This document shows, one piece after another, positions 27,062 to 63,572 of a DNA stretch of 64,000 nt (the stretch's first letter is position 1; each line of letters opens with the position of its first letter). The notes under the pieces are model-generated. The model searched no databases and was not told the origin of the DNA. It saw only the letters and a program-made list of their open reading frames with translations. Source of the stretch: Octopus sinensis (Eukaryota); contig NC_042997.1 in NCBI RefSeq assembly GCF_006345805.1, positions 205,654,001 through 205,718,000 on the forward strand, written 5' to 3'. The translations under genes and the position numbers were made by a program.

Positions 27062-27289
27062 TTTATTAGAGGAATATTCATCCCAGGGAGGTAATGCCAG
27101 ATGAAATACATTCTTACAGTTGAGGTTATATCCTTTAGTGATGGCTATTTTAAATGTAGAAATACCTTGAGGATATTTCTGGTTACATTCATATTGTATC
27201 TGTGAACCAGCAGCATTGAGAATAGATTTGGAGATAGCACCACAGTTAAGCTGGAGTTCTTTATTGGTGCTGTTAACGATGACATCAAC
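27062..27289 (-). CDS. Macrodomain module 1, exon B
   Basis: ttttgtag| acceptor, |gtaagt donor, 228 nt; VDVIVNSTNKELQLNCGAISKSILNAAGSQIQYEC...ITKGYNLNCKNVFH (not in the ORF track). Confidence 0.92.
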
Positions 27290-27570
27290 CTACAAAAGTA
27301 ATTAATGGTAAACAACTAAGGAACATTCTGTGGAGAGAAGAGAGATACATTGTTGCAGTTGATAATGTTGTTAAGAAAGGCTCTACAGAATGGCTGTAGT
27401 AAGTTTGAGGTTGTTAAAGTTAGCAAAAGATATACTCAAGATATCAGATGTGAAGGAAATAAAATGTTTGAGTTAGATTGAGAAAATGTTTTAATTAACT
27501 GTAATGATTCCTCATTTGCAACTGAAATAACAATTAAACGTAAATATGTTAAGTGAATCTATTTACTCAC

Positions 27571-27707
27571 AGATGCATTAGAAATTGAATCAGTCGATAG
27601 TTGTATTTTGATGCCAGCATTTTCTCTGGATGTCTCATTAGTTCTGGGCTCCACAGAAGAGGTTTCCTTTTGCGAAACATGAAGAGATGTGTTTGATGAT
27701 GTGGTGT
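27571..27707 (-). CDS. Macrodomain module 1, exon A (Ser/Thr linker + first strand)
   Basis: ttttcag| acceptor, |gtgagt donor, 137 nt, phase 1-0; DTTSS...GIKIQLSTDSISNAS joins VDVIVN in frame. Confidence 0.85.
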
Positions 27708-28569
27708 CTGAAAATAATAAACAAATATCAACATATGTACACTTTATACACACACACACACACACATATGTCATCATCATTTAACGTCCGTATATGTATT
27801 TCATGTTTGGATTTGGTTTGCAAGATTCTTTATGTGAGTTTGTGTGTTGAAGCATATTCTGTTGTGTCTGGGGAGAGTCATTTTCTTTTGGTGCCTTATA
27901 ATTTAACATACTCACTGCCAAAAATTTCCACTTATTTCTCCTTTTTATTTTGTTCAAATTTTCATTGCATCTTGCAACCTTTTCAATAGTCTTGACTCTG
28001 TCCGTTATTTACACTGCGTTCCTTTTTGTTTGTTTGTGCGCATGTGTGTGGGTCAGTGTGTGTGTGTGTCTATGCATGCATGTGTGTGTGTATGCATATG
28101 TATATATGTATGTATGTGTGTGCATCTGTATGTATGTAATCTGCATATTCATGTGCTTGCATGTCCGTGTTTGCGTATGTTTTGTGTATGTGTGTGTGAG
28201 TGTGTTTGTGTATATATGCACCTCTGTCTCCTTGTGTGTGTGTGTGTGTGTGTTTTGCCACTTTGTACCATGTTTGTATGTATGGATGTGCATTTCTATA
28301 TGTGTGGACACGTATCTCCATATGTGTCCTTGTGTGGAGTAAAGCGTGTGTGTACATATGTTCTTGTGTTTCAGTATCCATTTGTGTATGTGTGCCTGTT
28401 TGTTCATATAACCTATGTACCTATCCATCTGTATGTTGATCTGTTTATTTTCATATCCATATGCTTACATACATGTGCATATACACATATGTACCCACAC
28501 ACACACACATACATACCTCAATCTACATAACAGCCCACTAACTATTCTACTCTACCTGTGTAAACTGTG

Positions 28570-29640
28570 GGTATGGGCGTATGGTATCTACCATGTATAT
28601 TTCCTATTTAGTATTAGGAAAGTTTCATTTATAAGGACGTACTCCCGTATTTGTCTGAGTGTTGGGTCTTTTGATTGCTTGGATGAGATGCAGATGTCAA
28701 GTTGACCCAAGTTGCCTCCATGATGGTCTTTGGGATGTTGGTAGAGTATGGAGGACTGCTTTTTGTTGTCATATTGTCTCAAATGTTCATTTAGTCTTTC
28801 AGCTATGCTCCTAGATGTCTCCCCTATGTAAGTCATGTTCATGTCTTTACAGGCACCTTCTAAGCATCATATGCTGTAAACTACATTTCGAGTTCTACAG
28901 TTAATGCCAGGGCTAATCCTACATACCATGCAGTTATCATTGGTGCATATGGTATTCTTAAAGGGGTACGTCCTACATAGTTATGATCTGACGGAGTTCC
29001 CTGGCTTTTCAACAATCTTAATGTCGGGTTTGGTCTCCTTCAGAGCTTCCCTAAATCTACAGGCTAGTTCTCCATGGGATTTGGCCTCTACAAACATCAC
29101 TCCTTGATATTTCTCACTTTTATACCATGTGTTCACCCCGTTTGCTTTGTCACAAGTTCTTTGTATCCTATTCCATTCTTTGTTTCTATATCTAGGGCAG
29201 CTACCACTGGTATCATTACGTATAATGTTATCAGATTTATTTCTAGCACCCCTGTACACTCGAACCCTATCTTTTTGATCATATCCAGAGAACTGCATGC
29301 GGTGCATGAAGTTCTGTATGTGTTTTGTCGTTTCATAGGGTTCGCATAGTGGGGACACATTGTTCATTATTCTAATTAAGTCTGCTATCAGTATGGTTTA
29401 ATTTCCATGTTGTATGAGAAAGGTGAGTTCTTGTGAACGACATAGTTTGAAGTTATGGGTTCCATGTAATAAGAGTGGAGGAGCTGCACTCTTTTGTTCA
29501 CAGTCTCTAACCCAAGTTCAGTATCAAGTACAGGGAGTCCATTGTTGGGGTGCTTAGTGGGGTTTAATCTATAGTTACCTTGATACTTTGGTGGATGGAG
29601 TTAGCTATTTGCTGGAGGCTCTCCATTACGTTCTTCTCAG
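28570..29640 (-). mobile_element. Penelope-like element remnant (RT thumb + GIY-YIG)
   Basis: LPVLD, RMQFSGY, CRTRNVVYSI*C, YIGETSRSIAERLNEH. Confidence 0.8.
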
Positions 29641-29798
29641 TTTCTACATTAAGCGGACATTTCACCAGTGAGTGTGTAAAATTATAAGGCACAAAAAGAA
29701 AATGACCCTCCCCCGAGACACAACAGTATATATATATATATATATATATAAGCAACAGTAACTTCAAAAACCAGCCAACCATACACTTAACGCTTTAC

Positions 29799-29940
29799 CA
29801 GTCTGGGGTGCACATAGGCCAAATTGACTAAATCATTAGTTTTATTTGGATGCCATCATATTTTCTGGATGTCACTTTAGTTCTGGGTGTCATAGAGGAC
29901 GATTCCTGTTGAGGACTAAGAAGGTCTGATGGTTTGGTTC
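29799..29940 (-). pseudogene. Exon-A-like paralogous exon with in-frame stop (unit 1)
   Basis: ttttcag| acceptor; GTKPSDLLSPQQESSSMTPRTKVTSRKYDGIQIKLMI*SI aligns to exon A; 3' end uncertain. Confidence 0.6.
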
Positions 29941-30089
29941 CTGAAAATTAACAAATATAAACATACATACACACACACAAACATACACATTTTCAATCAT
30001 AAAGTCTGCTCTATTCTTTAGGTTGTGCTTCTCATTCTGATATATGTTATATTGATAATTCATATATATATATATATATCTTAGCTGGG

Positions 30090-30620
30090 CATAAGAACCA
30101 TCAGATGTGGTGTACAAGAGAGACAACTGCACACGACATCTGAAGAAGTTCCAATCTCTACCAGTGGGAGGAAGCTGTAGAAGAGGGAGGCCCAGGAAGA
30201 CATGGAATGAGGTGCTTAAGCATAATCATCAAATGATGGGCTACATGGAAGCAATGACTAGTGGTCGAGACCTTTGGCGATATGTCATACTTGAGAAGAC
30301 ATATCAAGCCAAATGAAATCATAGCTGTGGTCTTTGTAGGTGTCACCTACCTGCCAGCCATGCCAGTCTCACGTAAAAAGTACCATTTGGGGGTTGTGCC
30401 TCATAGAGGCCATGTGGTTGATGCTGGCATCATGTATCTAGCATCCATGCTGGTGGTAAATAAAAGCAGCCATTACATTGGTGGTTAGGAAAGGTATCCA
30501 GCTGTAGAAACCATACCATGTCAGACTGGAGATGGTGTAGCCCCTCACCTTGCCAGCCCCAGTCAAACCGTCCAACCCATGCCAGCATGGACAATGGATG
30601 CTAAATGATGATGATCATGA
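30090..30620 (+). mobile_element. Old RTE 3' fragment and tail
   Basis: GSCRRGRPRKTWNEV, then tail ending in (GAT)n. Confidence 0.8.
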
Positions 30621-32363
30621 TGTACATACGTATAGGCATGCCATCATCAGCATTATCCCCATCTACATTTCATGTCCATGCTGGCATAAGTTGAACAAAA
30701 TGATATATAAAGACACATTTGTCACAGCAAAAGTCATGTCCAAAAACTGTGATATATATTCCTGTCCATGCTGGGCCTTACGCCCACATTTGCCCCTGTG
30801 AAGCATCCCCTTCACCACATCTCATCTTCCTAACACCCACCCCTCTATTATACTCTTCTAACTATGGTCCTACTTTACTGCTGTAACCATTTGAGAGCAT
30901 TCATCACCACCCAAACCCTTTCATTAATACCAGTTGCATCTCTTTCATCATCATCTCCATCCATACAACCTTCCATCGATCATCCCTTTCTGTCCCTTCC
31001 CTAATCTTTCCCACCCATCCCTCTTAGCTACACCTTACTCTGCCAGGTTTCCTGTTGAACACTTCTCCTATCTGCAATCATTCTCAACACCCTCTCACAG
31101 CCATTGCTAATAATCCCTCCAATTTTCTGGCCCCACTCACTATAGCCACCCCCATGTATCTCTGACTCCCATCTCTTTCACAGTTCATCATCTCTGCTTT
31201 CCCTCTGCTGTCAGATCCTGGTCTTCATCTCTCTTCCTCCTCATCTATCAACAGATTGATGATTCTGCTGCTCTCCACCCTTCCTCTGAGGCTTTTTGTC
31301 ACCTCCTCCTTTCCGAGCCCCGTCAGTCTATCAACTCCACCTCAAACCATTGTTCCTCACTCTCTACAACCACCTCAAGCCCCATCTCTAACCTCTGCAC
31401 TTTTCATCTCACACTCTGATGCCATTACCCTCCCATTCCTTCTTTACTCATCCACAGTCTCCCTTATACTCCCCTTCTTGTAACTTGGGACTATGCTCTG
31501 GCACTCTATTACCACCATCTTTCTTCCTTCCAGATACTGTCATGCACCTTTGCATAAATATAAGGACGCCACGAGTCTCCTCTAGATCTATGTGCTTAAG
31601 CCTCTGGCAAACTTTAGACTTTCTAGCCCTGGCCTCAAGCCACCTCCCCACTCCCCAGTTCCATCAGGGGGCTTGCAAGATACTTGGTAACCTCACCAGT
31701 GCTGGTGCCATGAGAAAAGCAGGTTCCAGTCCACACTCTAAAATGGTTGGCATTATGTTGAGTATTCTAACTCTGAATATTCTTCGACCAAAGTAGATGG
31801 GGATGACAATGTGTTTGTCCCTTGCTAGGATGGCCGTCCAGTTATTTTTGGTCTCCTCCTCTGAGACAGACTGCACTTTGACAGTCCCATATTTCTTTCT
31901 TTAACCTGGCTACGTAGGCTTTGCTTTTCTAAACTGCTTCTAGGTATTTCTCTATTTGCTGCTGTGTTGCCTGCTCCACTTCCCTTCTTTTGACTTCAGT
32001 TGTTTTATATAGGACTGTCCACAAATTAATTTTTTGCGGGGCCAGTTCTATGAATGTTTAATACCATTTTTCTGCTACATTTTGCACTCTTGAATTCATT
32101 TCCATCAATAAAAAATGTCTTCACTTAATTCTGTGGTTACTCTTGCAAAGTTGAAATTGTTACGACTAGATTTGCATGTCTCATTCTTCCTCATTTTCTC
32201 TCTCTCTCTCTCCTCTTGTTTTTCCTCTGCCTAGGTAACCAAATACCTCCTTCACACCAGCACACCAATTTATGGCCTTTTTTGCGTACCTCTTTCTCTG
32301 TCCCTCGGTAACCATGTCTCTCCTCTATAGCAAGACATCTCTCTCTGCTTCTTTATTTCTCCG

Positions 32364-32826
32364 TCACACTCTAACACTTCATCATCTACTACTGGATCAC
32401 CTCCTCCAATGCCCTCTCTGCTATGGCAAGACCCCTCTTTCTGTCTCTCTGTCACACTCTAACACTTCATCATCTACTACTGGATCACCTCCTCCAATGC
32501 CCTCTCTGCTATGGCAAGACCCCTCTTTCTGTCTCTCTGTCACACTCTAACATTTCATCATCTACTACTGGATCACCTCCTCCAATGCCCTCTCTGTTAT
32601 GGCAAGACCCCTCTTTCTGTCTCTCTGTCACACTCTAACATTTCATCATCTACTACTGGATCACCACCTCCAATGCCCTCTCTGTTATGGCAAGACCCCT
32701 CTTTCTGTCTCTCTGTCACACTCTAACATTTCATCATCTACTACTGGATCACCACCTCCAATGCCCTCTCTGTTATGGCAAGACCCCTCTTTCTGTCTCT
32801 CTGTCACACTCTAACCTTTCATCATC
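32364..32826. repeat. 88-bp minisatellite, ~5 copies (unit 1)
   Basis: tcacactctaacatttcatcatctactactggatcacctcctccaatgccctctctgttatggcaagacccctctttctgtctctctg repeated. Confidence 0.95.
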
Positions 32827-33289
32827 TGACACAAGCTCTCCTCTTGCCCCTCTCATAATTCATTATCTTGGTGACCCTGCCAGCACTGGTGCCATGTAAA
32901 AAGCATCCACTGCACACTGTGAAATGGCTTGCATTTGGAAGGGCATCTAGCTGCAAAAATAATGCCAAAACTAACTTTGTTGTGCTAGTTCCACGTAAAA
33001 TGTACTGAGTCCACTCTGCTGAGTGGTTGGTGTTAGGAAGTGCATCCAGCTGTAAAATTCCTGCCAAACAGACAGAGTAGCGAAGGGTAGTTATTTTCCA
33101 CCTTGCCGGCTCCTGTCAACTGTCCAATCCATGCATGCTTAGAAAACAGATGTTAAACGATGATGATGATGATGATGTTGGCAGTGGTACTGGCAAACCT
33201 GCTGCAGCTGCACCTGATAACACAGGAACTTGAGGTAAACATGAATTCTGATCACGAACAGCCGACGAGAGAGAAGAAACCCTACTCCG

Positions 33290-34580: not shown

Positions 34581-35101
34581 ATGATAATAATGATATTAAC
34601 ATTAATCATATTTATAATAAACAGTGTTTAATAGAGACGGTGTGACAAAACACCATAATATTCAATATCAACAAACAAATTGTTTACCTTTTGAATGAAA
34701 TCTTTCCTTTTCCTGTTTATTCATCATTCCTTCATTTTCGCCTTTATTTTGGAGATATTCTTCAAATTTCTGCAAAATTTAAAACCATGAGAATCATTTT
34801 TGTTTAATTTTTTGCTTTTTTTAAAGAGAAGAGATTTAATTTAACAAAAGACAAACAAAATATTTAAAATATTTAATGATTTATTTCTAATCAGTAATAA
34901 GGAAATAAGGAAAATTACTTTGTCACTCAGATCAAAGATATTCCATCCACGACCTTCCAGTCTACTGGGAGACATGGTGTTATAGTGGATGTGGCAGAAA
35001 AACCTTCCACTGTGACCACTGATGTGGTGTTAGTGAAGTTAAACATGTGGCAATGGTGTCTTCATGTAGCTGAAGTTGTATTGTTTCTTCTCTCCACTCA
35101 C

Positions 35102-37469: not shown

Positions 37470-38079
37470 CTAAAAAAAATAATTGTTTAGTAATTGATAA
37501 TGAACATTTTATTAAATTATTTTCTTATTACAGGAAGAAACCATTAAGTTGTCATAAATATATCCTCCTCTCACAACTCCTCTCACTCCTACCACTTCTA
37601 AACACAACTGTCATTCCTATCACTCTTTAGTCCTGCAAGGGACAAGGGAACCTCACTCATGATGCTGCTACAATAAAACAGACCCAAACCACCGTGTAAA
37701 ATGGTTGGTGAATGAAGAGAGTCAATGCAGACCCAAGAGGAGTCTTTAGTGTTGTTGAGGACATGACAACCTCTCTAGTGCTCGTGCCATGACAGAGAAA
37801 AACTCACCAATACAGACAGTAAAACAGAGAAATATGTTTTAATATAGTCTTATTTATCAGTCACATAACTGTTGTTAGGCCATGAGGCTTTTTTCCTTCT
37901 ATTTATATATAAAAGTGTCCTGTTCATCGATATCTTCTGCTTCCTTCCAATGATAACTTGGAAGAACAAATATTAAACAGGATGCTGACATTTGCTTTAT
38001 GATTCTCACACAACATGCATAAGGTTCTCTTCAAACATTAACTCTTTCAATAAATCAATATAATATGATTGATACTTAC

Positions 38080-38307
38080 TGAATCAGAAGAATATACATT
38101 CCAGTAAGGTAATACCAGATGAAATACATTCTTACAGTTGAGGTTATATCCTTTAGTAATGGCTATTGTAGATGTAGAAATACCTCGAGGATATTCCTCG
38201 TCACATTCATTTTGTATCTGTGGACCAGCAGCATTGAGAATAGATTTGGAGATAGCACCAATGTTAAGGTAGAGGTTTTTATTGGTTCTGTTAACGATGA
38301 CATCAAC
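38080..38307 (-). CDS. Macrodomain module 2, exon B
   Basis: AG/GT bounded, 228 nt, open; VDVIVNRTNKNLYLNIGAISKSILNAAGPQIQNEC... Confidence 0.9.
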
Positions 38308-38588: not shown

Positions 38589-38725
38589 AGATGCATCAGA
38601 AATTGAATCAGTCGATAGTTGTATTTTGATGCCATCATTTTCTCTGGATGTCTCATTAGTTCTGGGTGCCACAGAAGAGATTTCCTTTTGCGAAACATGA
38701 AGAGATGTGTTTGATGATGTGGTGT
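38589..38725 (-). CDS. Macrodomain module 2, exon A
   Basis: AG/GT bounded, 137 nt; ...ENDGIKIQLSTDSISDAS. Confidence 0.85.
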
Positions 38726-40818: not shown

Positions 40819-40960
40819 CAGTCTGGGGTGCACATAGGCCAAATTGACTAAATCATTAGTTTTATTTTGATGCCATCATATTTTCTGGATGTCACTTTAG
40901 TTCTGGGTGTCATAGAGGACGATTCCTGTTGAGGACTAAGAAGGTCTGATGGTTTGGTTC
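40819..40960 (-). pseudogene. Exon-A-like paralogous exon with in-frame stop (unit 2)
   Basis: Duplicate of 29799-29940 with the same TAG at 40848-40850. Confidence 0.6.
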
Positions 40961-41921
40961 CTGAAAATTAACAAATATAAACATACATACATACACACAC
41001 ACAAACATACACATTTTCAATCATAAAGTCTGCTCTATTCTTTAGATTGTGCTTTGCATTCTGATATATGTTATATTGATAATTCATATATATATATATA
41101 TCTTAGCTGGGCATAAGAACCATCAGATGTGGTGTACAAGAGAGACAACTGCACACGACATCTGAAGAAGTTCCAATCTCTACCAGTGGGAGGAAGCTGT
41201 AGAAGAGGGAGGCCCAGGAAGACATGGAATGAGGTGCTTAAGCATAATCATCAAATGATGGGCCACATGGAAGCAATGACTAGTGACCGAGACATTTGGC
41301 GATATGTCATACTTGAGAAGACATATGGTCAAGGAATATGGCGACCTGGCAGCTGGAGTCTTAGAGTAGCTGTCCACCGAAGTTCCATATAATATGGGAA
41401 GGAAAAAGGAAAAGGAGGAAAATACAATGTTACTAAAACAAAGACACATTCACATGTAGACAAACAAATGGTTTGATTAGGGTATAATCAATTTGGCGAG
41501 GAAACTAAAGAGAAAATATTACGACGATGACCACCACAGATCTACAATGGAAGAATTCACCACGTGTAGTTGAGGGTAAAAGAAAACGTTGAACGACAGT
41601 AAGTACGTCCAAAATTTATAAAGCAGTGACATACATACATACATAGATACTTGTAGCAGACATGTATATACGTGCAGAGTGAAAAGAAATCACACTATTT
41701 AATGTGACGGACTACACTGCAAAAAATTAAAAAATCACTGATTTCATTTCTGTTTACAAACTTTCTCCGTGTCTACACTAAACATACGCACAAATCCTTT
41801 TATATATACACACGCAATATTTAAGAACAAAAGGAATATACACAAAAAAAGATCGAATTAAAAACAAATATTTTATATTTTACTTTTATCGTATTGTTGT
41901 TTACATTTTCTGTCTCTACGG

Positions 41922-43079
41922 ATGACCAGAAGCAACAGAATCGCCATGGTGGAATCCATAGCGGCGTGCGATAAGACTGGTCGCTGCTCCAAAATAGAAC
42001 ACTGCCCAGAAAATCACACCTGCCACATCTGTACGGAACCCGAAAATACGTTCCGTAATCGCTGGGTCGAATGTGGGACATGCCTCATCTCTGTCTGCCT
42101 CCAATGTGCCACGGACTTTCAGAAGATCCCAGGCCAAAAAAAGAGCCATCATAATGCTATGATGGATAGACTCTGGAAGATGGTTCAGCTTAAATCTTGG
42201 ACTTTTCAGTATCAGGCCTGCGCGCCTCCACAACCGACGATTGTGTCTCCCCCTGCCACTCCCGTGGAGGAGGCGGAACAGCAACAGCAGCAACAACAAA
42301 ATCAACCACAACTAGAGCAGCAGCAGCAGCAGCAACAACAACGACAGCAGCAACAACAAAATCAACCACAACCAGAGCAGCAGCAGCAACAACAGCAGCA
42401 ACAACAAAATCAACCACAACCAGAGCAGCAGCAGCAACAACAACAACACCAATTGACCAGTGCGGTTCTTGCAGAACTGCAACAATCGATCTGTGCTTTA
42501 AGAGGGGAAGTAGCAGGAATAAAAGCAACCATTCAGGTTGGACTCCACAATGAGGGGTCTTATCGGAATGCTCTGCTAAAGAACCTCCCTGTACCTGTAC
42601 CTCTTGTCGCATCTAAGACCGCGGATTCTGCTACCCATGAAGTCATTGCCATTGGGGTGCCTGAAGACATGGCTGATCTTCAGGCATTTGCTGCCAACTC
42701 AGCCAAAGACCTAGGCTGCGTTTCCCCAACGGGTGCTATCCGCCTTGGACGACCTGGCCCAAAACCTAGGCTCATCAAGCTGTCTTTTTCGGACCACACT
42801 GAGGCAACCTCTTACCATCTGGCCTCAGTTAAAGCTGGGCGTGAAAATCGGACCACCTTCCGAACACGCCCAGGCTTACCGTCCGATCTACGTCCGAAGC
42901 TACGTGTAGCGGCTTCCCTGAATAGGAACTCAGCTCTACAGGAAAGCTTCAGTCTTCGGGAAGATGGACAAATCTGGAGATTTGTCAAGACTGATGAAAC
43001 GTGGAAGAGAGATACCAGCTGGTCTGAGTGCTCTCTACCCACAATAACTAAAAAGACTACAGCAACTCAGGGAAACTAA
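41922..43079 (+). CDS. LINE ORF1 (Cys-rich finger, poly-Q repeats, coiled coil, RLG...RLIKLSF motif)
   Basis: 385-aa open ORF with CxxC pairs and RLGRPGPKPRLIKLSF. Confidence 0.85.
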   Translation: MTRSNRIAMVESIAACDKTGRCSKIEHCPENHTCHICTEPENTFRNRWVECGTCLISVCLQCATDFQKIPGQKKSHHNAMMDRLWKMVQLKSWTFQYQACAPPQPTIVSPPATPVEEAEQQQQQQQNQPQLEQQQQQQQQRQQQQQNQPQPEQQQQQQQQQQNQPQPEQQQQQQQHQLTSAVLAELQQSICALRGEVAGIKATIQVGLHNEGSYRNALLKNLPVPVPLVASKTADSATHEVIAIGVPEDMADLQAFAANSAKDLGCVSPTGAIRLGRPGPKPRLIKLSFSDHTEATSYHLASVKAGRENRTTFRTRPGLPSDLRPKLRVAASLNRNSALQESFSLREDGQIWRFVKTDETWKRDTSWSECSLPTITKKTTATQGN

Positions 43080-43135
43080 GCCAGGACAATCTGCCATCCT
43101 CCACACACCATCATAAACTGCGAGCAGGGTACAAA

Positions 43136-45901: not shown

Positions 45902-48033
45902 TTATATATACACTTTAGATGAGTTGTAGTGCACCTGAGCACTGTACACAATTATTATTATTATTATTATTATATCAAGCCAAATGAAATCATAGCTGTG
46001 GTCTTTGTAGGTGTCACCTACATGCCAGCCATGCCAGTCTCACGTAAAAAGTACCATTTGGGGGTTGTGCCTCATAGAGGCCATGTGGTTGATGCTGGCA
46101 TCATGTATCTAGCATCCATGCTGGTGGTAAATAAAAGCAGCCATTACATTGGTGGTTAGGAAAGGTATCCAGCTGTAGAAACCATACCATGTCAGACTGG
46201 AGTCTGGTGTAGCCCCTCACCTTGCCAGCCCCAGTCAAACCGTCCAACCCATGCCAGCATGGACAATGGATGCTAAATGATGATGATCATGATGTACATA
46301 CGTATAGGCATGCCATCATCAGCATTATCCCCATCTACATTTCATGTCCATGCTGGCACAAGTTGAACAAAATGATATATAAAGACACATTTGTCACAGC
46401 AAAAGTCATGTCCAAAAACTGTGATATATATTCCTGCCCATGCTGGGCCTTACGCCCACATTTGCCCCTGTGAAGCATCCCCTTCACCACATCTCATCTT
46501 CCTAACACCCATCCCTCTATTATACTCTTCTAACTATGGTCCTACTTTACTGCTGTAACCATTTGAGAGCATTCATCACCACCCAAACCCTTTCATTAAT
46601 ACCAGTTGCATCTCTTTCATCATCATCTCCATCCATACAACCTTCCATCGATCATCCCTTTCTGTCCCTTCCCTAATCTTTCCCACCCACCCCTCTTAGC
46701 TACACCTTACTCTGCCAGGTTTCCTGTTGAACACTTCTCCTATCTGCAATCATTCTCAACACCCTCTCACAGCCATTGCTAATAATCCCTCCAATTTTCT
46801 GGCCCCACTCACTATAGCCACCCCCATGTATCTCTGACTCCCATCTCTTTCACACTTCATCATCTTTGCTTTCCCTCTGCTGTCAGATCCTGGTCTTCAT
46901 CTCTCTTCCTCCTCATCTATCAACAGATTGATGATTCTGCTGCTCTCCACCCTTCCTCTGAGGCTTCTTGTCACCTCCTCCTTTCCGAGCCCCGTCAGTC
47001 TCTCGACTCCACCTCAAACCATTGTTCCTCACTCTCTACAACCACCTCAAGCCCCATCTCTAACCTCTGCACTTTTCATCTCACACTCTGATGCCATTAC
47101 CCTCCCATTCCTTCTTTACTCATCCACAGTCTCCCTTATACTCCCCTTCTTGTAACTTGGGACTATGCTCTGGCACTCTATTACCACCATCTTTCTTCCT
47201 TCCAGATACTGTCATGCACCTTTGCATAAATATAAGGACGCCACGAGTCTCTCTAGATCTATGTGCTTAAGCCTCTGGCAAACTTTAGACTTTCTAGCCC
47301 TGGCCTCAAGCCACCTCCCCACTCCCCAGTTCCATCAGGGGCTTGCAAGATACTTGGTAACCTCACCAGTGCTGGTGCCATGAGAAAAGCAGGTTCCAGT
47401 CCACACTCTAAAATGGTTGGCATTATGTTGAGTATTCTAACTCTGAATATTCTTCGACCAAAGTAGATGGGGATGACAATGTGTTTGTCCCTTGCTAGGA
47501 TGGCCGTCCAGTTATTTTTGGTCTCCTCCTCTGAGACAGACCGCACTTTGACAGTCCCATATTTCTTTCTTTAACCTGGCTACGTAGGCTTTGCTTTTCT
47601 AAACTGCTTCTAGGTATTTCTCTATTTGCTGCTGTGTTGCCTGCTCCACTTCCCTACTTTTGACTTCAGTTGTTTTATATAGAACTGTCCACAAATTAAT
47701 TTTTTGCGGGGCCAGTTCTATGAATGTTTAATACCATTTTTCTGCTACATTTTGCACTCTTGAATTCATTTCCATCGATAAAAAATGTCTTCACTTAATT
47801 CTGTGGTTACTCTTGCAAAGTTGAAATTGTTACGACTAGATTTGCATGTCTCATTCTTCCTCATTTTCTCTCTCTCTCTCTCCTCTTGTTTTTCCTCTGC
47901 CTAGGTAACCAAATACCTCCTTCACACCAGCACACCAATTTATGGCCTCTTTTGCGTACCTCTTTCTCTGTCCCTCGGTAACCATGTCTCTCCTCTATAG
48001 CAAGACATTTCTCTCTGCTTATTTATTTCTCCG

Positions 48034-51000
48034 TCACAAACTAACATTTCATCATCTACTACTGGATCACCTCCTCCAATGCCCTCTCTGCTATGGCAAG
48101 ACCCCTCTTTCTGTCTCTCTGTCACACTCTAACATTTCATCATCTACTACTGGATCACCACCTCCAATGCCCTCTCTGTTATGGCAAGACCCCTCTTTCT
48201 GTCTCTCTGTCACACTCTAACATTTCATCATCTACTACTGGATCACCTCCTCCAATGCCCTCTCTGTTATGGCAAGACCCCTCTTTCTGTCTCTCTGTCA
48301 CACTCTAACATTTCATCATCTACTACTGGATCACCACCTCCAATGCCCTCTCTGTTATGGCAAGACCCCTCTTTCTGTCTCTCTGTCACACTCTAACATT
48401 TCATCATCTACTACTGGATCACCTCCTCCAATGCCCTCTCTGTTATGGCAAGACCCCTCTTTCTGTCTCTCTGTCACACTCTAACATTTCATCATCTACT
48501 ACTGGATCACCTCCTCCAATGCCCTCTCTGTTATGGCAAGACCCCTCTTTCTGTCTCTCTGTCACACTCTAACATTTCATCATCTACTACTGGATCACCT
48601 CCTCCAATGCCCTCTCTGTTATGGCAAGACCCCTCTTTCTGTCTCTCTGTCACACTCTAACATTTCATCATCTACTACTGGATCACCTCCTCCAATGCCC
48701 TCTCTGTTATGGCAAGACCCCTCTTTCTGTCTCTCTGTCACACTCTAACATTTCATCATCTACTACTGGATCACCTCCTCCAATGCCCTCTCTGTTATGG
48801 CAAGACCCCTCTTTCTGTCTCTCTGTCACATCTAACATTTCATCATCTACTACTGGATCACCACCTCCAATGTCCTCTCTGTTATGGCAAGACCCCTCTT
48901 TCTGTCTCTCTGTCACACTCTAACATTTCATCATCTACTACTGGATCACCTCCTCCAATGCCCTCTCTGTTATGGCAAGACCCCTCTTTCTGTCTCTCTG
49001 TCACACTCTAACCTTTCATCATCTACTACTGGATCACCTCCTCCAATGCCCTCTCTGTTATGGCAAGACCCCTCTTTCTGTCTCTCTGTCACACTCTAAC
49101 CTTTCATCAACTACTACTGGATCACCACCTCCAATGCCCTCTCTGTTATGGCAAGACCCCTCTTTCTGTCTCTCTGTCACACTCTAACATTTCATCATCT
49201 ACTACTGGATCACCTCCTCCAATGCCCTCTCTGTTATGGCAAGACCCCTCTTTCTGTCTCTCTGTCACACTCTAACCTTTCATCATCTACTACTGGATCA
49301 CCACCTCCAATGCCCTCTCTGTTATGGCAAGACCCCTCTTTCTGTCTCTCTGTCACACTCTAACATTTCATCATCTACTACTGGATCACCACCTCCAATG
49401 CCCTCTCTGTTATGGCAAGACCCCTCTTTCTGTCTCTCTGTCACACTCTAACATTTCATCATCTACTACTGGATCACCTCCTCCAATGCCCTCTCTGTTA
49501 TGGCAAGACCCCTCTTTCTGTCTCTCTGTCACACTCTAACCTTTCATCATCTACAACTGGATCACCACCTCAAATGCCCTCTCTGTTATGGCAAGACCCC
49601 TCTTTCTGTCTCTCTGTCACACTCTAACATTTCATCATCTACTACTGGATCACCTCCTCCAATGCCCTCTCTGTTATGGCAAGACCCCTCTTTCTGTCTC
49701 TCTGTCACACTCTAACATTTCATCATCTACTACTGGATCACCACCTCCAATGCCCTCTCTGTTATGGCAAGACCCCTCTTTCTGTCTCTCTGTCACACTC
49801 TAACATTTCATCATCTACTACTAGATCACCACCTCCAATGCCCTCTCTGTTATGGCAAGACCCCTCTTTCTGTCTCTCTGTCACACTCTAACATTTCATC
49901 ATCTACTACTGGATCACCTCCTCCAATGCCCTCTCTGTTATGGCAAGACCCCTCTTTCTGTCTCTGTCACACTCTAACATTTCATCATCTACTACTGGAT
50001 CACCTCCTCCAATGCCCTCTCTGTTATGGCAAGACTCCTCTTTCTGTCTCTCTTTCACACTCTAACATTTCATCATCTACTACTGGATCACCTCCTCCAA
50101 TGCCCTCTCTGTTATGGCAAGACCCCTCTTTCTGCCGCTCTGTCACACTCTAACATTTCATCATTTACTACTGGATCACCTCCTCCAATGCCCTCTCTGT
50201 TATGGCAAGACCCCTCTTTCTGTCTCTCTGTCACACTCTAACATTTCATCATCTACTACTAGATCACCTCCTCCAATGCCCTCTCTGTTATGGCAAGACC
50301 CCTCTTTCTGTCTCTCTGTCACACTCTAACATTTCATCATCTACTACTAGATCACAACCTCCAATGCCCTCTCTGTTATGGCAAGACCCCTCTTTCTGTC
50401 TCTCTGTCACACTCTAACATTTCATCATCTACTACTGGATCACCTCCTCCAATGCCCTCTCTGTTATGGCAAGACCCCTCTTTCTGTCTCTCTGTCACAC
50501 TCTAACCTTTCATCATCTACTACTGGATCACCTCCTCCAATGCCCTCTCTGTTATGGCAAGACCCCTCTTTCTGTCTCTCTGTCACACTCTAACCTTTCA
50601 TCAACTACTACTGGATCACCACCTCCAATGCCCTCTCTGTTATGGCAAGACCCCTCTTTCTGTCTCTTTGTCACACCCTAACATTTCATCATCTACTATT
50701 GGATCACCTCCTCCAATGCCCTCTCTGCTATGGCAAGACCCCTCTTTCTGTCTCTCTGTCACACTCTAACCTTTCATCATCTACTACTGGATCACCACCT
50801 CCAATGCCCTCTCTGTTATGGCAAGACCCCTCTTTCTGTCTCTCTGTCACACTCTAACATTTCATCATCTACTACTGGATCACCACATCCAATGCCCTCT
50901 CTCTTATGGCAAGACCCCTCTTTCTGTCTCTCTGTCACACTCTAACATTTCATCATCTACTACTGGATCACCTCCTCCAATGCCCTCTCTGTTATGGCAA

Positions 51001-54000
51001 GACCCCTCTTTCTGTCTCTCTGTCACACTCTAACCTTTCATCATCTACAACTGGATCACCACCTCCAATGCCCTCTCTGTTATGGCAAGACCCCTCTTTC
51101 TGTCTCTCTGTCACACTCTAACATTTCATCATCTACTACTGGATCACCTCCTCAAATGCCCTCTCTGTTATGGCAAGACCCCTCTTTCTGTCTCTCTGTC
51201 ACACACTAACATTTCATCATCTACTACTGGATCACCACCTCCAATGCCCTCTCTGTTATGGCAAGACCCCTCTTTCTGTCTCTCTGTCACACTCTAACAT
51301 TTCATCATCTACTACTGGATCACCTCCTCCAATGCCCTCTCTGTTATGGCAAGACCCCTCTTTCTGTCTCTCTGTCACACTCTAACATTTCATCATCTAC
51401 TACTAGATCACCACCTCCAATGCCCTCTCTGTTATGGCAAGACCCCTCTTTCTGTCTCTCTGTCACACTCTAACATTTCATCATCTACTACTGGATCACC
51501 TCCTCCAATGCCCTCTCTGTTATGGCAAGACCCCTCTTTCTGTCTCTCTGTCACACTCTAACCTTTCATCATCTACTACTGGATCACCTCCTCCAATGCC
51601 CTCTCTGTTATGGCAAGACCCCTCTTTCTGTCTCTCTGTCACACTCTAACCTTTCATCAACTACTACTGGATCACCACCTCCAATGCCCTCTCTGTTATG
51701 GCAAGACCCCTCTTTCTGTCTCTCTGTCACACTCTAACATTTCATCATCTACTATTGGATCACCTCCTCCAATGCCCTCTCTGCTATGGCAAGACCCTCT
51801 TTCTGTCTCTCTGTCACACTCTAACCTTTCATCATCGACTACTGGATCACCACCTCCAATGCCCTCTCTGTTATGGCAAGACCCCTCTTTCTGTCTCTCT
51901 GTCACACTCTAACATTTCATCATCTACTACTGGATCACCACCTCCAATGCCCTCTCTGTTATGGCAAGACCCCTCTTTCTGTCTCTCTGTCACACTCTAA
52001 CATTTCATCATCTACTACTGGATCACCTCATCCAATGCCCTCTCTGTTATGGCAAGACCCCTCTTTCTGTCTCTCTGTCACACTCTAACATTTCATCATC
52101 TACTACTGGATCACCACCTCCAATGCCCTCTCTGTTATGGCAAGACCCCTCTTTCTGTCTCTCTGTCACACTCTAACATTTCATCATCTACTGCTGGATC
52201 ACCTCCTCCAATGCCCTCTCTGTTATGGCAAGACCCCTCTTTCTGTCTCTCTGTCACACACTAACATTTCATCGTCTACTACTGGATCACCTCCTCCAAT
52301 GCCCTCTCTGCTATGGCAAGACCCCTCTTTCTGTCTCTCTGTCACACTCTAACATTTCATCGTCTACTACTGGATCACCACCTCCAATGCCCTCTCTGTT
52401 ATGGCAAGACCCCTCTTTCTGTCTCTCTGTCACACTCTAACATTTCATCATCTACTACTGGATCACATCCTCCAATGCCCTCTCTGTTATGGCAAGACCA
52501 CTCTTTCTGTCTCTCTGTCACACTCTTACCTTTCATCATCTACTACTGGATCACCACCTCCAATGCCCTCTCTGTTATGGCAAGACCCCTCTTTCTGTCT
52601 CTCTGTCACACTCTAACATTTCATCATCTACTACTGGATCACCTCCTCCAATGCCCTCTCTGTTATGGCAAGACCCCTCTTTCTGTCTCTCTGTCACACT
52701 CTAACATTTCATCATCTACTACTGGATCACCACCTCCAATGCCCTCTCTGTTATGGCAAGACCCCTCTTTCTGTCTCTCTGTCACACTCTAACATTTCAT
52801 CATCTACTACTGGATCACCTCCTCCAATGCCCTCTCTGTTATGGCAAGACCCCTCTTTCTGTCTCTCTGTCACACACTAACATTTCATCATCTACTACTG
52901 GATCACCTCCTCCAATGCCCTCTCTGTTATGGCAAGACCCCTCTTTCTGTCTCTCTGTCACACTCTAACCTTTCATCATCTACAACTGGATCACCACCTC
53001 CAATGCCCTCTCTGTTATGGCAAGACCCCTCTTTCTGTCTCTCTGTCACACTCTAACATTTCATCATCTACTACTGGATCACCTCCTCCAATGCCCTCTC
53101 TGTTATGGCAAGACCCCTCTTTCTGTCTCTCTGTCACACTCTAACATTTCATCATCTACTACTGGATCACCACCTCCAATGCCCTCTCTGTTATGGCAAG
53201 ACCCCTCTTTCTGTCTCTCTGTCACACTCTCACATTTCATCATCTACTACTGGATCACCTCCTCCAATGCCCTCTCTGTTATGGCAAGACCCCTCTTTCT
53301 GTCTCTCTGTCACACACTAACATTTCATCATCTACTACTAGATCACCACCTCCAATGCCCTCTCTGTTATGGCAAGACCCCTCTTTCTGTCTCTCTGTCA
53401 CACTCTCACATTTCATCATCTACTACTGGATCACCTCCTCCAATGCCCTCTCTCTTATGGCAAGACCCCTCTTTCTGTCTCTCTGTCACACTCTAACATT
53501 TCATCATCTACTACTAGATCACCACCTCCAATGCCCTCTCTGTTATGGCAAGACCCCTCTTTCTGTCTCTCTGTCACACTCTAACATTTCATCATCTACT
53601 ACTGGATCACCTCCTCCAATGCCCTCTCTGTTATGGCAAGACCCCTCTTTCTGTCTCTCTGTCACACTCTAACATTTCATCATCTACTACTGGATCACCT
53701 CCTCCAATGCCCTCTCTGTTATGGCAAGACCCCTCTTTCTGTCTCTCTGTCACACTCTAACATTTCATCATCTACTACTGGATCACCACCTCCAATGCCC
53801 TCTCTGTTATGGCAAGACCCCTCTTTCTGTCTCTCTGTCACACTCTAACATTTCATCATCTACTACTGGATCACCTCCTCCAATGCCCTCTCTGTTATGG
53901 CAAGACCCCTCTTTCTGTCTCTCTGTCACACACTAACATTTCATCATCTACTACTGGATCACCTCCTCCAATGCCCTCTCTGTTATGGCAAGACCCTCTT

Positions 54001-55886
54001 TCTGTCTCTCTGTCACACTCTAACCTTTCATCATCTACAACTGGATCACCACCTCCAATGCCCTCTCTGTTATGGCAAGACCCCTCTTTCTGTCTCTCTG
54101 TCACACTCTAACATTTCATCATCTACTACTGGATCACCTCCTCCAATGCCCTCTCTGTTATGGCAAGACCCCTCTTTCTGTCTCTCTGTCACACTCTAAC
54201 ATTTCATCATCTACTACTGGATCACCACCTCCAATGCCCTCTCTGTTATGGCAAGACCCCTCTTTCTGTCTCTCTGTCACACTCTCACATTTCATCATCT
54301 ACTACTGGATCACCTCCTCCAATGCCCTCTCTGTTATGGCAAGACCCCTCTTTCTGTCTCTCTGTCACACACTAACATTTCATCATCTACTACTAGATCA
54401 CCACCTCCAATGCCCTCTCTGTTATGGCAAGACCCCTCTTTCTGTCTCTCTGTCACACTCTCACATGTCATCATCTACTACTGGATCACCTCCTCCAATG
54501 CCCTCTCTCTTATGGCAAGACCCCTCTTTCTGTCTCTCTGTCACACTCTAACATTTCATCATCTACTACTAGATCACCACCTCCAATGCCCTCTCTGTTA
54601 TGGCAAGACCCCTCTTTCTGTCTCTCTGTCACACTCTAACATTTCATCATCTACTACTGGATCACCTCCTCCAATGCCCTCTCTGTTATGGCAAGACCCC
54701 TCTTTCTGTCTCTCTGTCACACTCTAACATTTCATCATCTACTACTGGATCACCTCCTCCAATGCCCTCTCTGTTATGGCAAGACCCCTCTTTCTGTCTC
54801 TCTGTCACACTCTAACCTTTCATCATCTACTACTGGATCACCTCCTCCAATGCCCTCTCTGTTATGGCAAGACCCCTCTTTCTGTCTCTCTGTCACACTC
54901 TAACCTTTCATCAACTACTACTGGATCACCACCTCCAATGCCCTCTCTGTTATGGCAAGACCCCTCTTTCTGTCTCTCTGTCACACTCTAACATTTCATC
55001 ATCTATTATTGGATCACCTCCTCCAATGCCCTCTCTGCTATGGCAAGACCCCTCTTTCTGTCTCTCTGCCACACTCTAACCTTTCATCATCTACTACTGG
55101 ATCACCACCTCCAATGCCCTCTCTGTTATGGCAAGACCCCTCTTTCTGTCTCTCTGTCACACTCTAACATTTCATCATCTACTACTGGATCACCTCCTCC
55201 AATGCCCTCTCTGTTATGGCAAGACCCCTCTTTCTGTCTCTCTGTCACACTCTAACCTTTCATCATCTACAACTGGATCACCACCTCCAATGCCCTCTCT
55301 GTTATGGCAAGACCCCTCTTTCTGTCTCTCTGTCACACTCTAACATTTCATCATCTACTACTGGATCACCTCATCCAATGCCCTCTCTGTTATGGCAAGA
55401 CCCCTCTTTCTGTCTCTCTGTCACACTCTAACATTTCATCATCTACTACTGGATCACCACCTCCAATGCCCTCTCTGTTATGGCAAGACCCCTCTTTCTG
55501 TCTCTCTGTCACACTCTAACATTTCATCATCTACTACTGGATCACCTACTCCAATGCCCTCTCTGTTATGGCAAGACCCCTCTTTCTGTCTCTCTGTCAC
55601 ACTCTAACATTTCATCATCTACTACTGGATCACCACCTCCAATGCCCTCTCTGTTATGGCAAGACCCCTCTTTCTGTCTCTCTGTCACACTCTAACATTT
55701 CATCATCTTCTACTGGATCACCTCCTCCAATGCCCTCTCTGCTATGGCAAGACCCCTCTTTCTGTCTCTCTGTCACACTCTAACCTTTCATCATCTACTA
55801 CTGGATCACCTCCTCCAATGCCCTCTCTGTTATGGCAAGACCCCTCTTTCTGTCTCTCTGTCACACTCTAACCTTTCATCATCTGA
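48034..55886. repeat. 88-bp satellite array, ~89 copies (unit 2)
   Basis: Same monomer as 32364-32826; ORF-track periodicity is 88 nt. Confidence 0.98.
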
Positions 55887-56539: not shown

Positions 56540-57620
56540 GGGAAAACTAAAATGACGTCATTTTGCTTGGGAAGGATTGCCAGATAGTTTAATTAAATTC
56601 TTGCATTTCTGTGACTTTTATGCTAAAAACTGTGGCTTTAAGTCCAACATAAAATTTACGTCTAGTTTTTCAAAAACTAGCATTGATTATTTGGACACAA
56701 AAGTTAAGTTTTCTGGAGGCAGAATAGTGACAGAGTTACTTTGCAAGCCCATGTCATCCTACATTTACTCCCACCACCGATCATCCACAGCATATAATTT
56801 GGTCAAATCCCAAATCCCAATAGTTGAGGATAAAACAGATTCGTACTGACATAAGGGATTACTAGAAACATGCAAATGTTTTTGCACATCATTATGTCAA
56901 ATGCAGTTACAGTGAATCACGATTAATGGAAACAGCAAATGACATAGCTAAGATTAGCCAAGAAAGTTAAGCCCAATTCACACATAATTTTAGCAAACAC
57001 AATAGAATGTGTGACAGAAATGCTTTAGTGATTAACTGGCATCAAAATTTCACTGGCATTTCAAAAGCGTTGAAAGAAAGTTACCAGCATGTTGCAGAAA
57101 AATATCCTTGTTTCAAACAAATATTTCTTCAGCCACCCATTGTAGCCATTCGACAGAGTATAAGGGACCTTTTAACCTCTACTTCTAACTCCGAGAAAAC
57201 TAACATTGGGGTATCTGCACGCAGTACCTTGAAAAACAGCCGCAAGAGAGGTAAGCCCTCTTCATTGCGCAACAACATGAGTCAAGTCAGGAATCATAAC
57301 AGAAATGTTATGATTTATACAGAAGGTGGGAAATGTAGAGCTTTACATTTTGCCGTGTTCATGGCAGAATGCACGAAATGCAACTTGGTTTATGTTGGTT
57401 GCACAACAGAACAATTAAACAAAAGACTTAATTGGCACAGATATGATGTCAAGCACAATAACAGTAGTTGGACAGAACTTGCCGAATATTTTGCATCAAA
57501 TGGCTGCAATTTTGAAACAGACTTGAAAGGGCATGATGAGTTATTACCATCACGCCCTGGAGGAATGAATAAAATGACAGGAGAATTTCATCATATTTAC
57601 ACAAAACTATTTGATTAAAT
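56540..57620 (+). mobile_element. Degenerate Penelope-like element (RT + GIY-YIG)
   Basis: IKFT, IDYLDT, CKP; ECTKCNLVYVGCTTEQLNKRLNWHR. Confidence 0.8.
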
Positions 57621-59052: not shown

Positions 59053-59054
<2 letters not shown>

Positions 59055-59570: not shown

Positions 59571-60065
59571 ATGATAATAATGATAATAACATTAATCATA
59601 TTTATAATAATCAGTGTTTAATAGAGACGGTATGACAAAACACCATAATATTCAATATCAACAAACAAATTGTTTACCTTTTGAATGAACTCCTTCATTT
59701 TCGGCTTTATTTTGGAGATATTCCTCAAATTTCTGTAAAATTCAAAACCATGAGAATCATTTTTGTTTAATTTTTTTGCTTTTTTTAAAGAGAAGAGATT
59801 TAATTTAACAAAAGACAAACAAAATATTTAAAATATTTATTGATTTCTTTCTAATCAGTAATAAGGAAATGAGGAAAATTACTTTGTCACTCAGATCAAA
59901 GATATTCCATCCACGACCTTCCAGTCTACTGGGAGACATGGTATTGCAGTGGATGCGGCACAAAGACCTTCCACACTGACCACTGATGTGGTGTTAGTGA
60001 AGTTAAACATGTGGCAATGGTGTCTTCATGTAGCTGAAGTTGTATTGTTTCTTCTCTCCACTCAC

Positions 60066-60147
60066 CATTCTGATTAAAACTGCTGAGTCTTGTGTTTGCT
60101 GTTGAAATGTCTATCAAGAATGTTGAAGTTGAGGTTCTTTGGTGCAT
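60066..60147 (-). CDS. Candidate linker exon D (unit 2)
   Basis: Duplicate of 35102-35183 with the same donor and acceptors. Confidence 0.45.
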
Positions 60148-61399: not shown

Positions 61400-62195
61400 A
61401 AACACACCGGTCAACCGCAGTTAATGACATTTTGATTCATTTACTGCTTCTCTTAACACTCTTTTAAATAACACTTGCAGGAACATTTTTTTCCCAATTT
61501 TTCCTTCAGTTCTTCTGTAGACTTGTTTTTAACGTGACAACCATTTATTTTATTGCAGTAAAGATTTACAAGGAGGTACCATAAATTGAACAGTTCTAGC
61601 CAATCTGTACCAAACAGATGAATAATTTTGCTTCACGTGTCTCTCCTCGGAATGTGACGTCGATAAATGTTTTGTCCATCAAATGTAATCTGTCGCCCGT
61701 TACACCACATGCTATTTTCGCTGTTTTGCGTAATCTCAGTTTACCAATTTTTCCCAAGTATCTGCATTTATAATGAAGATGTCACTACCTGCATCTAACT
61801 GTAATTTGGTATTCACATCATTTATCTTTCATGCACGAATTTTCTTGTTTCTCCATCACAATCGATCTCCGCTGAAAACATCTTAGAACTTATTGTATTT
61901 GAGCTTTGCTGTCTTGTTCTACAATGAGAACTCCTGTGTCCCAGCTTATGACAACTATAGCACTTTTTGTTTTTAAAAGGACAATCCTTTTCGTAGTGTA
62001 GGCCTCCATAACCATAACACAGTTTGGGGCCTGATACTTTTTTGGATTCTGTTTTCCAGGGCAACACATTTGAAGTTTTGCAGATGTCTTTATCCGGCAT
62101 TATTTTCACATCATTTACTATAGTCTGACATTCTTCAGTGAGGGTCTGTAGAGATGAATCCTGGTTTGCTTGCTCCATTTTCAAAAGAATCCTTG
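61400..62195 (-). mobile_element. Gypsy (Mag-like) gag-pro remnant
   Basis: ORF 61822-62184 with zinc knuckle CYSCHKLGHRSSHC; LFGTDWLELFNLW downstream. Confidence 0.75.
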
Positions 62196-62199
62196 CCTG

Positions 62200-62420
62200 G
62201 TAAAAACTTTACCAGCAGGCATTCAGGAATGACTCAAAATTGTTAACAAATAGTGAGACAGAACTGGACAGCTTAATCCAGTCTGTGCAGATTTTTGTGA
62301 ATGATATCAAGATGGAGTTTGGACTCTCAAAATGTGCTTCAGTGGTGATGAGACCAAGAAAGCTTGTCAGGACAGAAGGCATATGGATGTCATGTGGGGA
62401 AATTTATAAAATGATTCCAG
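62200..62420 (+). mobile_element. R4/Dong-like RT fragment
   Basis: ELDSLIQSVQIFVNDIKMEFGLSKCA. Confidence 0.7.
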
Positions 62421-62518
62421 ATTCTTGTTTCTATTTTCTTCATTTCTTGCAGAATATGCTTTCGGTAAATTCCAAAAATATCAACATCAAACAACAAACA
62501 ACAAAAACATCAACCAAC

Positions 62519-62746
62519 CTTTGCTATTTCTCTGTCTTCTTCAGGTAAAACCACAAAGTAAACATCTTTGATCTGGCTTGAATTTTGATCTGAGTAGTTT
62601 TTCACTGCTTCATACATTGTTCTGGGTAGTTTTCCAATGGGGTATTTCATTTCAGCCCCTAATATAGGAAATGCCAGGCTTTTTGCTCCCATTCTCTCAG
62701 CAGTTTCCAGACAAGTGGTTATTACTTGAGTCAAGTTTGCCAGAAT
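62519..62746 (-). CDS. Macrodomain module 3, exon C
   Basis: AG/GT bounded, 228 nt; nearly identical to module 2 exon C. Confidence 0.88.
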
Positions 62747-63344
62747 CTAAAAAAAATAATTGTTTAGTAATTGATAATGAACATTTTATTAAATTATTTT
62801 CCAATTACAGGAAGAAACCATTAAGTTGTAATAAATATATCCTCCTCTCACTCTTACCACTTCTAAACACATCTGTCATTCCTATCACTCTTTCGTCCTG
62901 CAAGAGACAAGGCAACCTCACTCATGATGCTGCTACAATAAAACAGACCCCATCCACCGTGTAAAATGGTTGGTGAATGAAGAGAGACAATGCAGACCCA
63001 AGAGGAGTCTTTAGTGTTGTTGAGGACATGACAACCTCTCTAGTGCTCGTGCCATGACAGAGAAAAACTCACCAATACAGACAGTAAAACACAGAAATAT
63101 GTTTTAATATAGTCTTATTTATCAGTCACATAACTGTTGTTAGGCCATGAGGCTTTTTTCCTTCTATTTATATATAAAAGTGTCCTGTTCATCGATATCT
63201 TCTGCTTCCTTCCAATGATAACTTGGAAGAACAAATATTAAACAGGATGCTGACATTTGCTTTATGATTCTCACACAACATGCATAAGGTTCCCTTCAAA
63301 CATTAACTGTTTCAATAAATCAATATAATATGATTGATACTTAC

Positions 63345-63572
63345 TGAATCAGAGGAATATTCATTCCAGTAAGGTAATGCCAGATGAAATACATTCTTAC
63401 AGTTGAGCTTATATGCTTTAGTGATGGCAATTTCAGATGTAGAAATACTTCGACGAAATTTCTGGTTACATTCATCTTGTATCTGTGGACCAGCAGCATT
63501 GAGAATAGATTTGGAGATAGCACCAATGTTAAGCCGGAGGCTTCTATTGGTGCTGTTAACGATGACATCAAC
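63345..63572 (-). CDS. Macrodomain module 3, exon B
   Basis: AG/GT bounded, 228 nt, open; VDVIVNSTNRSLRLNIGAISKSILNAAGPQIQDEC... Confidence 0.9.

Follow-up and report, generated by a model that had tools for sequence, protein, structure and literature searches.

Divergent macrodomain exons between near-identical introns in tandem cassettes of an Octopus sinensis macro-PARP gene

The stretch of DNA analysed here (the window: 64,000 nucleotides, G000:C1:205,654,001-205,718,000 of the 2.72 Gb Octopus sinensis genome, the contig being written C1) carries part of a gene for a macro-PARP, a protein combining macrodomains with PARP domains. Three copies of one macrodomain exon, termed exon B, differ from each other more than the introns beside them do. 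With a probability of roughly 0.7, these copies belong to tandem cassettes of the macro2 type in which short-tract gene conversion would homogenise the introns across copies, selection would reject those conversions that erase amino acid differences, and selection would also favour new substitutions at some of the surface codons. The original prediction had offered diversifying selection and homogenisation of introns around a protected exon as alternatives. Both mechanisms find support, but they are not alternatives and the data need both together.

The gene lies on the minus strand. As judged from protein P0002, mapped on 264 kb around the window, it comprises macro1, six cassettes (M6 to M1) and three PARP-domain exons, all on a single strand, so that one gene combines macrodomains with a PARP domain as in a macro-PARP; of the six cassettes only M3, M2 and M1 lie within the window. 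Each is laid out as exon A, intron AB, exon B, intron BC and exon C, with short linker exons D connecting cassettes, and the A-B, B-C and C-D junctions are all in phase 0. The three exon B copies (B1 to B3) are 228 nt each, lie on the minus strand and have AG/GT ends. Exon B has a Pfam Macro match, and database proteins labelled as PARP14/PARP15 isoforms of Octopus sinensis contain it at 100% identity; P0002 carries PF01661 and PF00644.

Between B1 and B2, 18 of 76 residues differ, with 23 non-synonymous differences over 174.6 sites (0.132) and two synonymous differences over 53.4 (0.037). The 18 codons and the two synonymous changes agree with the original hand count, and the exon B peptides quoted with it are present in the sequence. 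B1 and B3 also differ at 18/76 residues (non-synonymous 0.130, synonymous 0.022), and B2 and B3 at 16/76 (0.107 and 0.064). Introns AB and BC taken whole differ between M1 and M2 at 23 of 889 positions (2.6%). In the upstream flank that belongs to the duplicated unit, 40 of 2577 positions differ (1.6%). The roughly 340 bp of intron said to carry about two differences do so (2/340, 26701-27040 against 37719-38058), but they are the best-conserved part of the introns. Exon B exceeds the introns in all three pairs (Fisher p 6e-7, 3e-5 and 7e-5); within exon B, the excess of non-synonymous over synonymous change is weak for the three pairs (p 0.08, 0.02 and 0.61). Exon C diverges more than exon B between M1 and M2, chiefly synonymously (synonymous 0.171, non-synonymous 0.112). 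Exon C of M1 is 98% identical to that of a cassette in a neighbouring gene (L015) and 87% identical to those of its own upstream cassettes, possibly through position-specific conservation of the last cassette beside the PARP domain. The window-pair values come from a first multiple alignment, in which copies whose intron BC is replaced were mis-aligned and the exon C row of M4 is unreliable.

A protein search for the cassette gave 71 genome matches, from which 67 loci were fetched; of those omitted, three were weak and one was the second part of a split match. Contig C1 holds 48 cassettes, near 41, 205-208 and 211 Mb; the other 19, on unplaced contigs, were excluded from the statistics because several of them exactly duplicate contig-C1 copies. 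Dropping one 5'-truncated copy left 47, and dropping frameshifted or broken copies left 45 or 44 for codon counts; the family statistics are built on BLAST projection. A PARP-domain exon has 30 genome matches, 22 of them on contig C1, adjoining cassettes. Homology between genes is limited to the cassette, the upstream flanks falling into 23 families.

Over the contig-C1 copies, synonymous and non-synonymous diversity (piS and piN) are 0.113 and 0.120 in exon B (piN/piS 1.06), 0.162 and 0.198 in exon A, and 0.176 and 0.113 in exon C. Intron diversity is 0.038 for AB and 0.048 for BC, and is U-shaped, at ~0.013-0.02 in the centre and 0.05-0.09 near the exons. PARP-domain exons likewise exceed their intron (0.099 and 0.084 against 0.050). 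As exons A, B and C and the PARP exons all exceed the introns, the contrast runs through the whole family and involves synonymous sites as well. The prediction that exon B evolves faster than its introns therefore survives in every window pair but is not specific to exon B, and the claim that it changes almost only at the amino acid level fits the recent history of this gene (see below) but not the family as a whole. Similarly, the dN/dS above 1 that was expected to persist as copies were added falls to about 1 across the exon, while an excess persists at the level of sites.

The introns are likely to have been homogenised by short-tract gene conversion, a process suggested by flat intron divergence, mosaic ancestry and a rise of incompatibility within 30 bp. 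In the 31 cassettes whose intron BC is of the window type, divergence of the intron centres stays at 1.3-2.2% across all exon-distance bins, while that of exon A ranges from 1% to 28%. The distances measured in adjacent partitions are hardly correlated (Spearman -0.03 to 0.43), and from one 60-nt window to another the nearest relative of M1 alternates between loci far apart. Four-gamete incompatibility increases from 0.18 (under 10 bp) to 0.40 (over 30 bp; permutation p 0.0005), with linkage decaying within ~30 bp, and among intron-only site pairs 944 of 2850 (33%) are incompatible. Cassette introns are ~4% apart although their upstream flanks are so diverse. A second cluster of cassettes at C1 ~41.0-41.4 Mb (L011, L017, L027, L041, L054), ~165 Mb from the main one, has the same intron sequences, which could reflect either long-range conversion or scaffold misplacement.

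One alternative is a recent duplication burst in which exons were positively selected and conversion played no part, as in the accelerated-exon model of snake toxin genes. It fits the low, near star-like intron divergence, the M1/M2 flank difference of just 1.6% and the synonymous rates near the intron rate in the window pairs. It is nevertheless very unlikely. Four-fold sites in exon C (0.196) and exon A (0.092) far exceed the intron centres (0.02), a third of intron site pairs are incompatible, flanks cannot be aligned between genes, and cassettes are common to O. sinensis and O. vulgaris, with related ones in O. bimaculoides and Argonauta. Trees that agree across introns AB and BC and exons B and C, which would have favoured this model, were not found. 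Strong purifying selection on the introns, through splicing or RNA-structure elements, would make the exons only seem fast, and the centre of intron BC is indeed 96-100% identical in the 39 of 40 scored genome matches that are full-length. Yet in the closest pairs the introns differ at least as much as the exons (16/878 against 7/591; 18/835 against 7/593), the M1/M2 introns are no more conserved than the transposon-containing flank, 15 of 47 contig-C1 copies have the intron BC centre replaced or interrupted, and a repeat search of the cassette introns gave no strong inverted repeat or convincing pairing elements. Intron constraint was rejected on the close pairs and the flank, and is as improbable as the duplication burst. 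An artefact of assembly or polishing could make introns look alike, and both the exact duplicates among unplaced contigs and the presence of single-base frameshifts are in keeping with one. It is, however, hardly credible given that the introns are 2-4% apart and not identical, that exon variants recur in the proteins of an independent species, and that a U shape and a synonymous excess are not expected from collapse.

Conversion alone does not account for the exons. In forward simulations tuned to the intron centres, with 3-4 replicates per parameter set, exon-B piN was 0.009-0.013 without selection and 0.022-0.039 under positive selection with free conversion, against 0.111 observed. Rejection of residue-changing conversions gave 0.026-0.31, together with U-shaped intron diversity at 150-nt tracts, and in the simulations it was only this rejection that lifted exon diversity.

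Selection for amino acid diversity in exon B is supported by tests that use no tree and by the variants private to this gene. Of the codons of exon B, 21 are invariant, ten show at least five residues and four show 7-8 residues (11, 16, 33 and 68), and the 131 distinct non-synonymous variants of the exon stand against 44 synonymous ones (ratio 2.98). None of 168 runs of a neutral-plus-conversion null reached the hot-spot counts or 131 non-synonymous variants. With gamma mutation-rate variation, 0 of 176 runs reached four codons with at least seven residues or 131 non-synonymous variants; one reached the count of codons with at least five residues, two the top-four sum and one a piN/piS of 1.09. 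Reading frames are intact across the 45-copy codon table, which contains no stop codon where ~7 would be expected among 175 variants (an estimate from site counts). Variants private to this gene number 15 non-synonymous to one synonymous in exon B (p 0.045), so the amino acid bias is real for its recent history. Per site, private non-synonymous variants in exon B (15/160, 0.094) exceed private intron variants (31/879, 0.035; p 0.003), and exon C (two non-synonymous) and exon A (three non-synonymous, one synonymous) of the same gene show no excess.

It could be argued that conversion and protection are sufficient: old exon differences would be kept without accelerated substitution, and the hot spots would be tolerant surface positions. 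This is consistent with the family-wide piN/piS of just 1.06, with piS above piN in exon C, with the high residue counts that simulations of this kind attain (top-four sum 27-35), and with the correlation between hot-spot variability and that of 304 distant macrodomains (Spearman 0.61). Such runs, however, give piS well above piN (0.129 against 0.084; 0.296 against 0.188), the reverse of the data (0.094 against 0.111). Neither the private variants of exon B nor the serine at codon 8, attained via two different codons, is readily explained by protection alone, which is considered unlikely.

A mutational bias directed at exons has also been considered, either conversion by complementary DNA of adenosine-to-inosine edited transcripts or CpG hypermutation. 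Cephalopods edit RNA heavily, and per-site variation is 2-5 times higher in exons than in introns. Nevertheless, each of the twelve types of change is raised, A>G in exon B (0.42 per A) does not exceed C>T (0.54 per C), CpG-type changes make up 12 of 177, and gamma rate variation fails to reproduce the hot spots. The mutation spectrum largely refutes the editing and CpG explanations, and a bias of this kind is highly improbable.

Several results weigh against the combination of conversion, protection and favoured substitution. No simulated parameter set fitted all statistics (3-4 replicates each), because synonymous diversity overshoots when piN is reached: protection models that attain the observed piN have a four-fold diversity of 0.12-0.37 against 0.05 observed. 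The correlation with distant macrodomains counts here too. Some null runs reached the variant ratio of 2.98 (maximum 3.78) and a ratio of piN to four-fold diversity of 2.1 (maximum 4.22), and the nulls are equilibrium Moran models while the data show an excess of rare variants. A tree-based codon test in an own grid implementation was nominally significant, with an omega of 1.78 under model M0 and twice the log-likelihood difference at 147. In 36 neutral-conversion simulations the latter was 18-133 and omega rose to 2.14, reaching 1.78 or more in two runs; since neutral conversion yields similar values, tree-based dN/dS was rejected as evidence and such tests are given little weight. Finally, two contig-C1 copies of exon B are frameshifted, including that of M5 in this gene, and exon C of M4 is broken, so decay or errors of assembly may affect some copies.

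By sequence and fold, the cassette is of the PARP14 macrodomain-2 type, its closest solved relative being macro2. Single-sequence structure prediction reached a predicted local distance difference test score (pLDDT) of only 43 and an alignment-based model of the paralogue P0028 (pLDDT 85) was used instead; its best match is 3q71, at a root-mean-square deviation of 1.7 A. On this model, exon B codons 8-17 form loop 1, codons 18-27 and 30-38 helices, and codons 65-70 the loop after the HLxL strand. Variable residues were located by secondary structure and alignment. Gly17 of exon B, invariant in 45/45 copies, aligns to G1044 of human PARP14, a numbering checked against V1032, V1092, M1108, F1129, P1130 and I1132 (PMC6008491), and is surrounded by variable codons 10, 11, 13, 15, 16 and 18. 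In the accessible text of PMC10499325, G1044 was mutated as the counterpart of the pocket-blocking G832E. In keeping with the original placement of the variable segment near the ADP-ribose site, hot spots include loop 1 around this glycine, but other hot spots fall on the helices and on generally variable positions. In primates, the selected surfaces are described in the available part of PMC4038475 as distinct from the ADP-ribose site.

Loop 2, encoded in exon C, is variable; its motif was recovered in 43 of 48 contig-C1 cassettes, none with the macro1-type G-I/V-F/Y, while macro1 has a GIFG/GVYG motif. A hydrophobic-aromatic pair in loop 2 has been tied to hydrolysis (PMC10221186, as far as its text was available). 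As loop 2 of the cassettes lacks this hydrolysis-linked aromatic, they are predicted to be non-catalytic readers of ADP-ribose. Through their variable surfaces they would bind different modified targets, or would evade antagonists made by pathogens. Among database isoforms, A3 is joined to B2 (P0004) and B2 to exon C1 (P0008), a lead towards possible cross-cassette splicing, although near-identical repeats invite mapping errors. That the macro2 reader might form an immune-receptor-like repertoire, with ~50 conversion-shuffled cassettes, in-frame B/C splicing and variants for different targets or antagonists, is a doubtful proposition at this stage.

The PARP region of P0002 has the motifs WHGT, GEGVYF and IYVTF, and its best PDB matches are the catalytic domains of PARP14/PARP15; it may be a mono-ADP-ribosyltransferase, a class recognised by an H-Y-non-Glu triad. 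P0002 has no macro3 or WWE match and so differs from the canonical PARP14 layout of three macrodomains and WWE; a rough motif search found a WWE-like motif in some paralogues only. Upstream, at C1:205838-205863 kb, there are exons matching RRM/KH, but the reading frame is broken immediately ahead of macro1, and the annotated protein begins inside macro1. Downstream, the three PARP catalytic exons are tandemly duplicated at 97% identity (L069/L070, C1:205,626,649-205,643,363), possibly as an alternative 3' end or a fragment. The PARP catalytic exons L088-L117 also show non-synonymous variation, including residues just after the HGT motif, and carry an uncalibrated tree-based signal.

Features of the macro2 cassettes in the window (positions count from the first letter of the window)
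Feature	Position	Strand	Remarks
Exon C1 of M1	26223..26450	-	loop 2 FPILGAGVLKYP and C-terminal half; phase 0-0
Intron BC of M1	26451..27061	-	centre at 26720-27010
Exon B1	27062..27289	-	loop 1, helices 1-2 and following strands; PARP14 macrodomain-2 type; phase 0-0
Intron AB of M1	27290..27570	-	family diversity 0.038; centre ~0.013-0.02, edges 0.05-0.06
Exon A of M1	27571..27707	-	linker and first macrodomain strand; phase 1-0; identical to P0002
Upstream flank of duplicated unit	27720..30300	.	GIY-YIG element fragment and degenerate exon A copy; neutral yardstick
Linker exon D, M2-M1	34688..34769	-	phase 0-1
Exon C2	37242..37469	-	loop 2 FPILGAEMKYP
Exon B2	38080..38307	-	Pfam Macro
Exon A2	38589..38725	-	
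Linker exon D, M3-M2	59678..59732	-	
Exon C3	62519..62746	-	
Exon B3	63345..63572	-	Pfam Macro
Exon A3	63850..63986	-	

Other features of the window concern the cassette surroundings. A degenerate additional copy of exon A, with a stop, lies at 29822-29929 and 40842-40949 (minus strand) and occurs upstream of several cassettes. An 88-bp tandem repeat has 89 copies at 48028-55884, in the M3-M2 interval, and five at the equivalent place in the M2-M1 interval (32358-32827), which is read as a large expansion after duplication of the unit. About 4.6 kb at 41326-45972 are present in the M2 unit and absent from that of M1. The long intron downstream of M1 contains a nearly intact element of the long interspersed nuclear element type (12754-15905, minus strand), with an endonuclease open reading frame and another for a 727-residue reverse transcriptase, and a PHD-like finger; decayed relatives lie at 1472-2619 and 18683-20020. 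Fragments of GIY-YIG elements and of a DDE transposase are found at 28591-28866 (minus), 56971-57615 (plus) and 9331-9771 (plus), the last two under curated cut-offs.

The evolutionary pattern described here is a known one. A literature search, to which subscription papers were mostly inaccessible and in which genome-paper supplements could still list an expansion, found no description of an octopus macro-PARP expansion; the octopus result was a mucus proteome listing a PARP14-like protein in its available part (PMC11431876). In the literature searched, therefore, the octopus macro-PARP repertoire, an amplified, conversion-shuffled and diversifying macro2 array, is undescribed. The octopus would have many slightly different predicted readers of ADP-ribose, with conversion mixing and selection as the likely mechanism. 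Macro-PARPs are antiviral in mammals, and the octopus lacks adaptive immunity; the array points to a strongly expanded, diversifying candidate immune family. The basis of target specificity in reader macrodomains is an open question, for which ~50 near-identical macro2 domains, with 20-25 differing surface positions on an invariant core, would provide a natural panel to test specificity directly. The array further offers a clear case, at the genome level, of conversion set against selection, where the usual dN/dS tests are misleading.

At the protein level, 13 of 19 cassettes from O. vulgaris differ by 0-5 residues from one O. sinensis cassette, three being identical, but none is closer than 10 residues to M1-M3, which are 16-18 residues apart from each other. 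Related cassettes are found in O. bimaculoides, and near-identical tandem copies in Argonauta hians (two in P0059; protein level). In other molluscs and in deuterostomes, macrodomain stretches number at most four or five in a protein and are diverged.

The gene resembles vertebrate PARP14, PARP15 and PARP9 in its macro1, macro2, PARP order, possibly preceded by RRM/KH, in its macro2 fold, and in having hydrolase motifs in macro1 and no loop-2 aromatic in macro2. According to the accessible parts of PMC4038475, PMC10221186, PMC10499325 and PMC13224862, macro-PARPs show positive selection and gene turnover in primates and other vertebrates, and lancelet has a cluster of four copies. Three macrodomains are the ancestral state (PMC10221186, likewise in part). 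Unlike in vertebrates, macro2 is amplified in the octopus, with six in tandem in this gene and 48 on contig C1, P0002 has neither macro3 nor WWE, and ~22 catalytic exons lie on one contig. Octopus copies are mosaics, probably under conversion, whereas vertebrate macro-PARPs are orthologues diverging between species.

Conversion opposed by, or combined with, diversifying selection is described for the major histocompatibility complex (MHC), immunoglobulin V, RHCE/RHD (the Innan model), clustered protocadherins and insect serpin exon-9 arrays (PMC3966226, in its accessible part). The octopus array shares with these systems tandem variable exons, homogenised surroundings and raised synonymous as well as non-synonymous diversity at the selected exons, the synonymous peak being 0.11-0.18 at exons against 0.04-0.05 in introns, and its introns carry the recombination signal of such families. 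In contrast to these systems, the octopus unit is a predicted intracellular ADP-ribose-binding domain inside an enzyme, in a cephalopod. Snake three-finger toxin genes have conserved introns and switched exon segments (PMC2474615, as far as available), and the likeness extends to introns more alike than exons and to a patchwork of short exon segments. The octopus protein, however, is not a secreted toxin, and in its case conversion is indicated directly by four-gamete tests on the introns.

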